From NCBI GenBank assembly GCA_963726195.1, contig CAVSBO010000007.1:32001-96000 (forward strand): a DNA stretch of 64,000 nt, given 5' to 3'. Source of the stretch: Candidatus Thorarchaeota archaeon. GTDB lineage: Archaea; Asgardarchaeota; Thorarchaeia; Thorarchaeales; Thorarchaeaceae. The translations under genes were made by a program, and so were the position numbers. Each line of letters begins with the position of its first letter. The first letter of the stretch is position 1. The notes under the pieces are model-generated. The model saw nothing but the letters and a program-made list of their open reading frames with translations. It made no database searches and was not told where the DNA came from. Shown here in pieces: positions 34,831 to 47,634 of this stretch.

Positions 34831-34936
34831 AGCCCCGTGGTGTAGTGGTCCAGCATAGGAGCCTCTGGAGCTCTTGACCGAGGTTCGAATCGTTGTAGGA
34901 TTCGTCCACAACGCGAACGTCCTCGCGGGGCTACCA
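34831..34936 (+). tRNA. tRNA-Gln(CUG) with 30-nt intron at 59/60 (34890-34919)
   Basis: Acceptor AGCCCCG/CGGGGCT+A+CCA; anticodon stem GGAGC/GCTCT with CTG at 34865-34867; T arm CGAGG-TTCGAAT-CCTCG is restored after intron removal; BHB motif. Confidence 0.95.
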
Positions 34937-44579: not shown

Positions 44580-46236
44580 ATGATCGCGATGGAAATTGAA
44601 GTAAAGCGTGTACCTGAAGTCATGCCCTCTCACACCACGGGTGACAAGGACATCTCAAGGTACCACGTGGAGAAGCACGAAATCCGCCCGCTACCGTATA
44701 CTACCAAGTCTATCTGCCCGGAGTGTCTTCTCACAAATGACGAAGTTCGCGTAATCGACGCGACTGTTTACGAAGAGGACGGGAAAATAATGTACAAGAA
44801 GTCCTGCCCTGACCACGGTGAGTTTGTTGACGTTTACTGGGGCGACGCCGAGATGTTCAAGCGCGCCCAGACTTACTGGTATGAAAGCGTAGGCCTTGAT
44901 AATCCAAGGACCGAAACGATTGAGGGCTGCCCGAATGATTGCGGTCAGTGCCCGCAGCATCAGTCGCATACTGCGCTGGCCTTGCTAGACGTTACTAATC
45001 GATGCAATCTGCGCTGCCCGATCTGTTTCGCAAACGCAGCTGAGTCCGGCTCAGTCTATGAGCCGACGCCCGAGGAAGTCCTCGAGATGATGAAAAACCT
45101 CAGACGCAACTTGCCTGTGCCAGCTCCTGCCCTACAGTTCGCTGGAGGCGAACCGACGGTCAGCAAGAATCTTCCGCAATACATTCGGTGGGCCAAGGAG
45201 CTTGGTTTTCGTCATGTTCAGATTGCCAGCAATGTTATCCGGATAGGGAACAGCCTAGACTATGCAAAGGAGCTGGTCGATGCTGGACTATCTGCTATCT
45301 ATATGCAGTTTGATGGTGTCACACCTGAGCCATATCTGGCCGCTAGAGGAACGAATCTATTGCCAGTGAAGCTCCAAGCCATTGAGAATTGTCGGAAGCT
45401 TGGGCTGGACGCAGTCATCTTGGTACCGACGGTTGTTCGCGGTGTCAACGATGACCAGCTTGGCCGCATAGTTGAATTCGCCGTTGAGAACCGGGATGTA
45501 GTCCGTTGTGTCAACTTCCAGCCTGTCAGCATTACGGGCAGAATAGATTACGAGCAGCGTCAGGCAATGCGGATAACGGTGCCCGATGTAGTTCACCGAA
45601 TCGAGGAGCAGACCAATGGCAAGATTCCTATCTCGGCCTGGTACCCCGTACCTGCGATGATGCCCGTAGGAAGAGCCCTCGGTTTGATTAAGGGTGTCCC
45701 ACAGCTGAGCTCAGCGCCCACTTCGCATGCGGAATGGCAACATTCCTGTACATCGACGACAAAGGCCATTACGAGCCCATAACGAATCTAATTGATGTGG
45801 ACAAGTTCCTCGAGCTCTGTCCGAGATCTCCGACCTCTACGCAGATGGCAAGACCGCAGCTAGCAAGCGCGCGAAAGCAAAGCTCTTGGGAGGAGTTCGA
45901 CACATCAAGAAGAAGGGAATCATTAAGGATCTCTTGGGTGCCTTCCTGAACAGAGGAGACTACGATTCGCTTGCGAAGTTCATGCACCATATCGTCATGC
46001 TCGGCATCATGCATTTTCAAGACCCATACAACTTCGATCTTGAACGAGTTCAGCATTGTGACGTGAACTACGCTGTCCCTGACGGAAGAATCGTCCCATT
46101 CTGCACGATGAACACCATTCATCGGTCTAGGATAGAACAGAAATTCGGTATGCCCGTCAAGGAGTGGCGCAAGACCCGGAGTCCGAGCCAATTCGAGGAA
46201 GAGACCATAACGAAGCCGTACTCGGGTAACCAATAG
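44580..46236 (+). CDS. tes: Radical SAM tetraether lipid synthase (Tes/GDGT-MAS, MJ0619-like); two indels (~45704, ~45820)
   Basis: N-terminal SICPEC...CPDHG, CPNDCGQC, CNLRCPICFA, GGEPT, NFQPVS, HFACG, MHFQD.YNFD..RV..C, PFC. Confidence 0.85.
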
Positions 46237-46250
46237 TACAGCGAACAACT

Positions 46251-46296
46251 ACCGGGACTGCCCATAGCTCATATGAGTAGTCCGGTTCTCTATTTC
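46251..46296 (+). terminator. 3' hairpin after tes
   Basis: ACCGG(G)ACUGC.CAUA / UAUG.GUAGUCCGGU ~14-bp stem followed by a pyrimidine tract. Confidence 0.45.
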
Positions 46297-46476
46297 ACAT
46301 CGACACGCTATCGCGATTTCGTGAACGCTCTCTCGCCCAAGGCATGAACGACGACTGCCTTTTTGACTCCTGAATCTAGGAAATGGGTGGTCATTATGCA
46401 GTTTAATATGCTTTAACAGAATCAAGCAGATTCGTTATGGATATGTTTAAAAGTTGGGGACACCCGGTAGTGTGTA

Positions 46477-46622
46477 GATGTAGGGTAAGTGCGGGAGCGC
46501 AACCTCCAGATAAGTAGCAAAGGCGGCGTGCGGGCTAGTTTTTCGTTACATGCCCTCAATTACGAAACTCCCCCCTCCTACCACGATTACCTGCACGTCG
46601 CCACCTCCTCATACCCAATATC
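46477..46622 (+). ncRNA. Candidate ~146-nt structured RNA
   Basis: TTTAAAAG at 46446-46453; 5'/3' terminal stem with 10 of 11 positions paired; 13-bp GC-rich stem with G-U pairs. Confidence 0.55.
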
Positions 46623-46719
46623 ATTCATGGCAATCCTTGAAATGATTGATGTAGGTGCTTTCCCTAGCATGAACAATCCTTAATTGAGGACAGTCGGGTC
46701 AAGACTTGGTTCTTTAAGA

Positions 46720-47634
46720 ATGACGAGACGTCAGCGACTGACTTTGCTGCAGGTCGACGCGTTCACTGATGTGCCCTTTGGAGGAAATCCATCTGCCGTA
46801 GTGCTCAACGCGGACCATGTTAGCGATGAGATAATCAGAGAGCTGTCAAGGGAGCTAGGTATTGGCCAGACCGTTTTTGTATCGGACTCGGGTGTTGCGG
46901 ACACGCGTTTCCGGTTCATTGTTTCTGGAGGCGAGATGCCATTTTCAGGTAGCCTCACTGTGGCTGCTCTTCATGCAATGGTCGAAGAGGGCATCATTGA
47001 CACTCCAAGAGATGTCTCTACCGTTAGCGTGGAAACAAAAGCTGGCGTTCTCTCGGTTGACATAGTGAAGAATGAGGAAACGAAGAGGCCCGAGATTCAG
47101 ATTACTGCCAAGAAGCCAGAGTTTCTCAGGACGTATGATCCCAGAGACTATGCAGAGGCTCTTGGTCTGAGTCTTGCCGACATTCTGTCATCAACTCCGA
47201 TTCAGACGGTCAGCACAGGTACCCCACAGCTGATGATTCCCGTAGGCACGCTGAAGGCTCTCGAAAGAATCCGCCCTGCTTGGGATCGACTCACTAGGCT
47301 GGGTAAGAACTCGGACTATGTCTCGATTCAGGTGTTCACAAGAGAGACGCTTGAACCCACGTCTGATGTTCATGTCAGGCACTTTGCTCCATCTCTGGGT
47401 ATCAATGAAGACCCAGTAACAGGGTCGGCGGCTGCGAGCATGGGCGGCTACATCATAAGATATGGTTTGATGGAGCCAACATATCCGGTTACCAGCATAG
47501 TGGTCGAACAGGGCCACTCAATGGGGCGCCCTGGAAAGGTTTTCGTTGAAGTCCGAGGAGATCCGGAAGACATTGAGCAAGTCAAGGTGAGCGGTACAGC
47601 AGTTACTATCTTCAAAGGTACGCTTTATGTTTAG
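46720..47634 (+). CDS. PhzF/DAP-epimerase-fold protein
   Basis: QVDAFT...GGNPSAVV, VSTG, RHFAPSLGINEDPVTGSA, EQG..MGRPG. Confidence 0.88.
   Translation: MTRRQRLTLLQVDAFTDVPFGGNPSAVVLNADHVSDEIIRELSRELGIGQTVFVSDSGVADTRFRFIVSGGEMPFSGSLTVAALHAMVEEGIIDTPRDVSTVSVETKAGVLSVDIVKNEETKRPEIQITAKKPEFLRTYDPRDYAEALGLSLADILSSTPIQTVSTGTPQLMIPVGTLKALERIRPAWDRLTRLGKNSDYVSIQVFTRETLEPTSDVHVRHFAPSLGINEDPVTGSAAASMGGYIIRYGLMEPTYPVTSIVVEQGHSMGRPGKVFVEVRGDPEDIEQVKVSGTAVTIFKGTLYV

Follow-up and report, generated by a model that had tools for sequence, protein, structure and literature searches.

A widespread candidate small RNA of Thorarchaeia with a conserved single-stranded platform and an anti-Shine–Dalgarno-like motif

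What is encoded on the plus strand between a tes-like radical SAM gene and a phzF-family gene in a Thorarchaeota genome; is it an RNA, a small protein, or simply the leader of the gene that follows? The question is raised by a stretch of 64,000 nucleotides (nt), here called the window, which corresponds to positions 32001-96000 of contig C7 of a Candidatus Thorarchaeota metagenome-assembled genome (MAG) that is 88.9% complete; coordinates without a contig name are window positions. A sequence-only reading of this DNA had proposed an independently transcribed, structured non-coding RNA with its own promoter, a long stem and a C-rich single strand, and each sequence element that it listed was verified where it had been placed. 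Eukaryotes have no closer known relatives than the Asgard archaea, and in the papers that we searched, no Asgard non-coding RNA was described beyond ribosomal RNA (rRNA), transfer RNA (tRNA), RNase P RNA and signal recognition particle (SRP) RNA. From comparative analysis of the sequence, we conclude that the segment 46446-~46610(+) is almost certainly a stand-alone gene for a small non-coding RNA (sRNA) of an uncatalogued Thorarchaeia family, which we call the platform RNA and of which our full-text literature search found no description. The core of the earlier proposal is upheld by the conservation of promoter, long stem and C-rich single strand over 17 genera, a pattern that argues for an independently transcribed RNA.

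How widespread is this RNA? A BLAST search with the intergenic region returned 46516-46612 at 85-96% identity in 24 of 24 same-family genomes, in 1-8 places each. A covariance model, R1, was then built from aligned copies and used to search 87 genomes of the class Thorarchaeia; it finds the RNA in 85 of them, at up to 11 matches per genome (median 3) and with E-values down to 1e-26, the window copy scoring 102.3 bits (E 2.7e-22). The 86th genome, which is 99% complete, was found by pattern search and has a copy with a hairpin inserted in the platform, and the single genome without a match is only 52% complete. In other words, the check for conservation in Asgard genomes that the sequence-only reading had suggested has been run, with the family detected in 86 of 87 Thorarchaeia genomes and its 13-base-pair (bp) stem covarying. 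The same model gave no credible match in 122 other Asgard genomes, where the lone match (E = 0.025) is AT-rich and unstructured. When an exact two-motif pattern was searched over 185,579 species, the matches listed all came from MAGs labelled Thorarchaeota, unclassified archaeon or Promethearchaeota or, in one case, Hermodarchaeota; this last record (L124) holds a copy of the window's own type (type A, below) that scores 115.1 bits and, in the rows compared by eye, agrees with the type-A copy of class genome G087 (L049). Viral contigs contained 0 matches to the family, on which ground a viral or mobile origin was rejected.

The 89-copy alignment, taken together with the flanking sequences, separates at least five paralogue lineages, each in its own stable neighbourhood. 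Type A, which includes the window copy, sits between the tes-like radical SAM gene and phzF, neighbours that are shared in 37 and 28 loci, respectively; among the neighbours of the other lineages are a PAS histidine kinase, behind which the RNA lies, an OsmC-like gene and a methyltransferase. These neighbours have unrelated functions, and many lie on the opposite strand, for which reason we regard the paralogues as independent genes. The source genome of the window has a second copy, which is leaderless, at C17:38485-38571(-) (L002/L109); it reads 5' GUGGUCGG ... CCGGCCAC-ACCUUUC 3', and TTTATATC lies 31 nt ahead of its first helix base. A separate observation concerns copy L022:260-349(+) (G021:C161:260-349), which is chimeric, with a 5' half of type B and a 3' half and flank of the type-A locus; the junction falls inside the invariant platform and near the contig start, and it reflects either paralogue recombination or an assembly chimera. 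Several contigs end within the element, and many copies are at contig ends.

The long helix, P1, is formed by GGCGGCGUGCGGG (46522-46534) and CCUGCACGUCGCC (46590-46602), both on the plus strand, and its proposed 13-bp stem is strongly supported by covariation, far beyond chance. Among 28 distinct homologues, 95.4% of stem cells are paired versus 87.6% in shuffles, and 53 cells carry double changes versus 12.8 in shuffles, with 0 of 500 shuffles as good; 3' partners slid out of register as a control give only 33-54% paired cells. RNAalifold, run on 29 core sequences, recovers the same helix, with both sides changed in 9 of its 13 pairs. The sequence of the closing helix is free to vary among copies, and the arms differ between genera yet remain complementary; it is put at 13-18 bp for the family as a whole, with 13-14 bp in type A, and in types B-E an internal loop divides it into stretches of 8-10 bp and 9-11 bp. 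The window copy has this covariation-maintained helix, to which a UAGUU/GAUUA extension (46536-40/46585-89) can be added from the sequence. Since the many G-U and U-G pairs of the stem would read A-C on the other strand, the plus strand is taken to be the functional one. The plus strand of the locus folds at -46.1 kcal/mol (z = -3.18, with 1 of 200 shuffles equally good), versus z = -1.69 for the minus strand. A GGGC/GCCC pseudoknot is disfavoured, by inspection, as copy L028 alters GGG jointly with its partner in the long stem and not with GCCC.

Could the locus nevertheless be something other than an RNA gene? An open reading frame (ORF) of 64 amino acids (46489-46683) runs across the platform in the window and might be a real small protein; alternatively, the element might be a DNA-level site, for instance for recombination or attachment, or the relic of a mobile element, as the frequent position of copies at contig ends and the one chimera might suggest. 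We find this scarcely credible. The frame between two of the motifs shifts in 17 of 82 copies, in-frame stops occur 5 to 50 codons past the first motif, and stem lengths differ by single bases, whereas the stem shows compensatory changes with strand-specific G-U pairs and the TATA spacing is fixed; additionally, no viral sequences match, and the paralogues hold stable syntenic positions. Coding potential was rejected because the ORF keeps neither its length nor its frame nor its stop among copies, and the conserved overlapping protein that the sequence-only reading had named as fatal to its proposal is therefore not what we see.

The locus also fails to match any RNA family that is already catalogued, in line with the first impression, formed by eye, that it is not a 5S rRNA, a tRNA or a C/D sRNA. 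Scanned with Rfam 15 at gathering thresholds, the whole window yields only the tRNA-Gln at 34831, which is likewise the only tRNA called by ARAGORN over the window, with none at the RNA locus; the Rfam tRNA model RF00005 also has no match there. When the threshold is relaxed to E<=10 over 46250-46800, just two chance-level matches (E 7-9) appear, and both leave the conserved loop untouched: MIMT1_1 at 46442-46526 reaches from the promoter through the 5' leader into the start of the long stem, and the other lies downstream, in phzF. The Rfam check that had been proposed thus leaves the conserved core without a match at the gathering threshold or at E<=10. Identity with RNase P RNA, SRP RNA or rRNA was rejected as the genome's own copies sit elsewhere (RNase P RNA at C11:57831-58171, SRP RNA at C16:201353-201661, 16S on C18 and 23S on C15). 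That SRP RNA (L105) is itself divergent, scoring 66.6 bits against an Archaea_SRP gathering threshold of 96.5. An archaeal C/D box sRNA was rejected since the 89-copy alignment holds no conserved C (RUGAUGA) or D (CUGA) boxes and the Rfam C/D models do not match. By inspection, without a dedicated model, an archaeal H/ACA sRNA was rejected as well: the tail is ACC rather than ACA, there is no tandem G.A of a K-turn, the upper stem is optional, and an H/ACA-type pocket would be asymmetric (6 nt versus 22 nt). The window copy was also inspected as a canonical bulge-helix-bulge (BHB) intron, and the required features are lacking.

Where would such an RNA begin and end? The putative promoter element, TTTAAAAG (46446-46453, plus strand), is identical in same-genus orthologues, with YTTAATAAG at the equivalent site in other genera, and a TATA box of consensus YTTAATARG is common to all lineages. 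In the leaderless types B-E, the first base of this box is 30±1 nt ahead of the first helix base in ~26 of 27 copies. Archaeal transcription has a usual TATA-to-start distance, and a comparison of the two implies that the leaderless types start on the first base pair. By the same spacing, type-A transcription is predicted to start ~30 nt past the start of the TATA box, at 46476-46477(+). The window RNA would then begin with a type-A-specific 5' leader (46477-46521, plus strand), which contains GUAGGG (46480-85), GCGGGAG (46491-97), a hairpin GGAG-CGCAAC-CUCC (46494-46507, with arms at 46494-97/46504-07) and an A-rich linker. Leader length varies between genera, being 45-58 nt in most and 7-30 nt in some.

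One part of the sequence-only reading finds no signal in the comparative data, namely that the RNA is a ~146-nt species with paired ends. The proposed terminal stem joins GAUGUAGGGUA (46477-87) to UACCCAAUAUC (46612-22), both plus strand, with 10 of 11 positions able to pair; when the 3' region of the window copy is shuffled, equally good pairing arises in 98 of 300 cases (z = -0.39), and across 38 copies, the first 28 nt of the leader tested with the 40 nt after the ACC tail give a mean z of 0.04, with none below -2. The sister paralogues, with their predicted start directly at the long stem, also speak against a terminal stem. The pyrimidine-rich sequence after the ACC tail of most copies suggests instead that the RNA ends around 46606-46625 or further downstream and is not closed by a terminal helix.

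The position of the RNA ahead of phzF, 64-200 nt upstream and on the same strand in 28 type-A loci, raises another alternative, that it is a cis-acting 5' leader, riboswitch or attenuator of this gene. This is very unlikely: the genes downstream of the other lineages are unrelated or on the opposite strand, pyrimidine runs follow the ACC tail, and phzF is separated from the RNA by a further TATA-like box, CCTTAATTG at 46677-85, which reads AATCCTTAATTAGC in other genera. That phzF has a TATA-like box of its own was our reason for rejecting a cis-leader. As to the gene itself, its likely start is the ATG at 46720, which the box precedes, and not the TTG at 46684 that mechanical ORF calling gives.

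What the helix closes is a loop, the platform (46535-46589, plus strand). Whereas the helix varies freely, this loop is invariant over ~58 nt in a MAFFT alignment of 31 copies and nearly invariant in the 89 copies aligned to the model; it hardly changes over 17 genera and at least five anciently diverged, separately syntenic paralogue lineages. It is G-poor, ~50 nt long across the family (~55 nt in the window) and essentially unstructured, and contains a U4-5 tract, ACAUGCCCUCA and AACUCCCCCCUCCUACCAC. All three are present in the window copy, within 46539-46584(+): the U-tract at 46539-43, ACAUGCCCUCA at 46548-58, and AACUCCCCCCUCCUACCAC at 46566-84, the last of which contains the unpaired C-rich strand CUCCCCCCUCCUACCAC (46568-84) and the heptamer CCUCCUA (46574-80), an anti-Shine–Dalgarno (anti-SD) sequence. 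CCUCCUA, AUGCCCUCA and the U4 tract are each kept in 84 of 88 copies. On the 3' side, the helix of almost every subtype runs straight on into A-CC-Y, and 75 of 88 copies have CACCY. The window copy has this tail (ACCU, 46603-06) in addition to its own TATA box, the single-stranded A-CC-UCCU spanning 46603-46609(+) and reading, together with C46602, CACCUCCU, the 16S anti-SD core.

Does the platform fold any further? The inner hairpin UUUCGU/ACGAAA that had been described in the window (46541-46/46562-67, plus strand) is indeed present and is invariant in type A; it is weak, however (~-3 kcal/mol), and in other paralogues it is remodelled (8 perfect pairs in L068) or absent. This hairpin is, in other words, optional. 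Several copies carry extra hairpins or 30-nt segments inserted in the platform; examples are L029:1438-1560(-), L091:1501-1621(+), L092:1393-1536(-), L093, L102 and L228:1473-1576(-). In L029 and L091, insertions of exactly 30 nt fall within the C-rich motif, and their excision restores the consensus exactly, although no canonical BHB could be fitted to them by inspection; other copies have one or two additional hairpins between motifs. Because the inner hairpin is optional and insertions between intact motifs are tolerated, we view the platform as a row of separate single-stranded modules without a compact overall fold.

What, then, does the platform RNA do? The 16S gene of the source genome ends in ...AUCACCUCCUA, and the CCUCCUA of the platform and the CACCU of the tail together reproduce this 16S tail, placing both halves of the anti-SD on single strands. 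(At about C18:88200-88290, L106, this 16S gene also has an extra ~29-nt hairpin, GAUGGAAG...CUUCCAUC, inserted between helix 45 and the anti-SD AUCACCUCCU.) In the 22 nt that precede the first ATG of ~2000 long ORFs of the genome, TAGGAG, AGGAGG, AGGTGA and GAGGTG rank among the most enriched hexamers (5-6x), from which it follows that SD-led initiation exists there. Our best overall explanation, held tentatively and at slightly less than even odds, is that the window encodes the type-A paralogue of a trans-acting, anti-SD-mimic small RNA. Its parts deserve different degrees of trust: it is probable that the RNA acts in trans through its platform, and plausible, though short of probable, that it does so specifically by anti-SD-type pairing with messenger RNAs (mRNAs). 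According to this proposal, the helix would merely present the platform, and the platform would recognize G-rich ribosome-binding sites such as UAGGAGG/AGGUG by base pairing and in this way modulate translation initiation or mRNA stability, probably with the help of a chaperone that binds the U-tract, such as an Sm-like protein.

The type-A leader offers a hint that the platform motifs engage in base pairing. Long type-A leaders share two G-rich boxes, GGURGG and GRGGGYAU/GYGGGAG; the GGUAGG found in leaders is the exact complement of the platform CCUACC, and the A/G variation preserves the pair with U. Over 39 leaders, most copies have leader-platform duplexes that are stronger than composition-matched shuffles; the C-rich motif gives a mean z of -1.67 and ACAUGCCCUCA one of -1.51, which is suggestive rather than a formal test as the copies are related, and duplex energies reach -23.7 kcal/mol. 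From these complementarities, we infer that pairing of the platform motifs with G-rich RNA is possible and does occur and that the type-A leader is possibly a self-masking device, a G-rich segment that would transiently cover the platform.

A number of observations weigh against anti-SD-type pairing as the mode of action. The leader of the window copy itself (GUAGGG...GCGGGAG) has weak complementarity to the platform, with z values of -0.59 and -0.98. SD use is apparent in only a minority of genes, and an SD-sized match of 6-7 nt is weak evidence when taken alone. In the source genome, exact complementary 8-11-mers are no commoner than for the reversed sequence, G-U-tolerant 11-13-mers are not enriched over the reversed control, and among sites of at least 9 nt, a start codon and an ORF come next in 11 of 77, versus 17 of 116 in the control; blastn-short of the RNA against that genome found no long antisense target. 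Pairing with stable RNAs was rejected too, given that the best site, in 16S, reaches -26.7 kcal/mol whereas the tail of the background from 3000 genomic windows extends to -27.8; the duplexes predicted for the rRNAs, RNase P RNA and SRP RNA all fall inside that tail, and complementarity of the platform RNA to tRNA D-loops is not general. Finally, anti-SD pairing leaves ~45 other invariant nt, including the U-tract, ACAUGCCCUCA and ACCAC, unexplained, and their invariance fits a protein or ribonucleoprotein partner better.

It is this last point that makes such a partner a serious rival. Might the RNA be a protein-binding scaffold, sponge or decoy, one that titrates or assembles proteins rather than pairing with mRNAs? 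The U-tract, GCCCUCA, CCCCCCUCCUACCAC and the CACCU tail would then be landing pads for one or more sequence-specific single-stranded-RNA-binding proteins; plausible candidates are KH-type or Sm-like proteins, or a normal reader of the 16S 3' tail such as a maturation factor of the Dim2/Pno1 or Nob1 type. We rate this possibility as somewhat unlikely but deserving of attention. It would account for ~50 nt of unstructured sequence being conserved letter for letter in ancient paralogues while the helix varies freely, for the tolerance of hairpin insertions between motifs, which suggests modular sites, and for a base-pairing target not being detectable in the RNA's own genome. Each molecule, moreover, carries two CCCUC-type and two CCAC-type elements, resembling multi-site sponges, and the loop and tail together copy the 16S tail. 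However, no candidate protein is encoded adjacent to any paralogue lineage, and the complementary G-rich boxes in the type-A leaders suggest that the motifs do base-pair.

A related idea gives the 16S resemblance a different meaning: the RNA might be a trans-acting mimic of the 16S 3' end, displayed on a tRNA-acceptor-like helix, and not an antisense regulator that targets mRNAs. We judge this unlikely. What such a mimic would titrate or deliver is a factor, for initiation or for late 30S maturation, that recognizes the 16S tail; the removable G-rich leader of type A would be the mimic's built-in mask, and the result would be an RNA-level control of ribosome maturation or initiation in Thorarchaeia with no described counterpart.

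What about the helix end itself? The flush 5' end, long helix and 3' A-CC overhang could mark the RNA as a mimic of a tRNA acceptor end that would be handled by tRNA-end enzymes, the options being ACCA completion by the CCA-adding enzyme, removal of the type-A leader by RNase P, recognition by RNase Z or even aminoacylation, and such end chemistry would be essential to function. Some ~26 of 27 leaderless copies have their predicted transcription start on the first helix base, the A-CC after the helix is shared by nearly all subtypes, and in promoter type and pyrimidine-rich trailer the RNA is similar to the genome's own tRNA genes. This notion is improbable all the same: the RNA is without D, anticodon and T arms, ARAGORN and the Rfam tRNA models are negative, after ACC the sRNA copies listed continue with U or C, unlike the genome's own tRNA genes, in which the complete CCA is encoded, and CACCU is equally well explained as the 5' half of the anti-SD. 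With regard to those tRNA genes, ARAGORN calls show that ~33 of 41 encode a 3' CCA followed by a pyrimidine-rich trailer, and about half are called with introns. One call, a "tRNA-Stop(tta)" with an intron at C16:41110-41218, resembles tRNA-Gln, and its intron position is probably mis-called.

Two further observations concern the surrounding DNA. The upstream tes-like radical SAM gene (44580-46236) is split over three reading frames, with breaks near 45693-45708 and 45812-45815; tblastn with an intact same-genus tes orthologue switches from frame 2 to 1 to 3 within ~120 nt, and the split gene could be a pseudogene, an assembly error or a case of recoding. Elsewhere in the same genome, a run of ~45 or more consecutive G is found on the minus strand at C8:116332-116376.

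No reasonably complete Thorarchaeia genome that was searched lacks the family, which occurs in several anciently diverged copies, and a ~50-nt strand that is about as strictly conserved as rRNA implies an important, conserved partner. The presence of the ribosome's mRNA-docking sequence in this RNA gives a testable handle on post-transcriptional control or ribosome biology, and the family represents a clean new entry for RNA family catalogues.

How does the platform RNA compare with known systems? With the tRNA acceptor end, it shares a flush 5' end, a long helix, an A-CC 3' overhang and a tRNA-gene-like promoter and trailer; it differs in that it has no cloverleaf and that its terminal A is not encoded, though the genome's tRNA genes encode CCA. 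An identity as tRNA was rejected since ARAGORN and RF00005 are negative and only acceptor-end geometry is shared. With the 16S tail, it shares the loop CCUCCUA and the tail CACCU(CCU), which are identical to parts of AUCACCUCCUA; unlike the 16S tail, it has the two halves on separate single strands, and its flanking conserved sequence is without rRNA counterpart. Among described small RNAs, the nearest are the cuckoo/CcsR RNAs of Alphaproteobacteria (RSs0680, SmelC397/alpha-r14), which are multi-copy RNAs with conserved intergenic neighbourhoods, covarying stems and a conserved CCUCCUCCC loop that resembles an anti-SD (PMC4615179); the RoxS/RsaE RNAs of Firmicutes, which have C-rich regions (PMC5419742), are close as well. 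Like the cuckoo RNAs, the platform RNA has several paralogues per genome in intergenic neighbourhoods that are conserved, stems that covary and an exposed, conserved C-rich anti-SD-like motif (PMC4615179). The cuckoo RNAs, however, are bacterial and consist of 2-4 short adjacent hairpins with a 9-nt motif in each loop (PMC4615179), whereas the RNA described here has one closing helix, a ~50-nt platform with 3-4 distinct motifs, an A-CC tail and an archaeal TATA box. Membership of the cuckoo/CcsR family was rejected on the grounds of its motif (CUCCCCCCUCCUACCAC, not CCUCCUCCC), its single long helix, its archaeal host and the absence of sequence or model similarity in Rfam scans, and the resemblance would be limited to the mode of evolution and the likely mode of action. 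From RoxS/RsaE it differs in architecture, phylum and promoter, and the targets of RoxS are known (PMC5419742), whereas none were found here. Because the domain of life, the architecture and the motifs differ and no model matches, the platform RNA is a member of neither family; at most, it would work as the cuckoo or RoxS/RsaE RNAs do.

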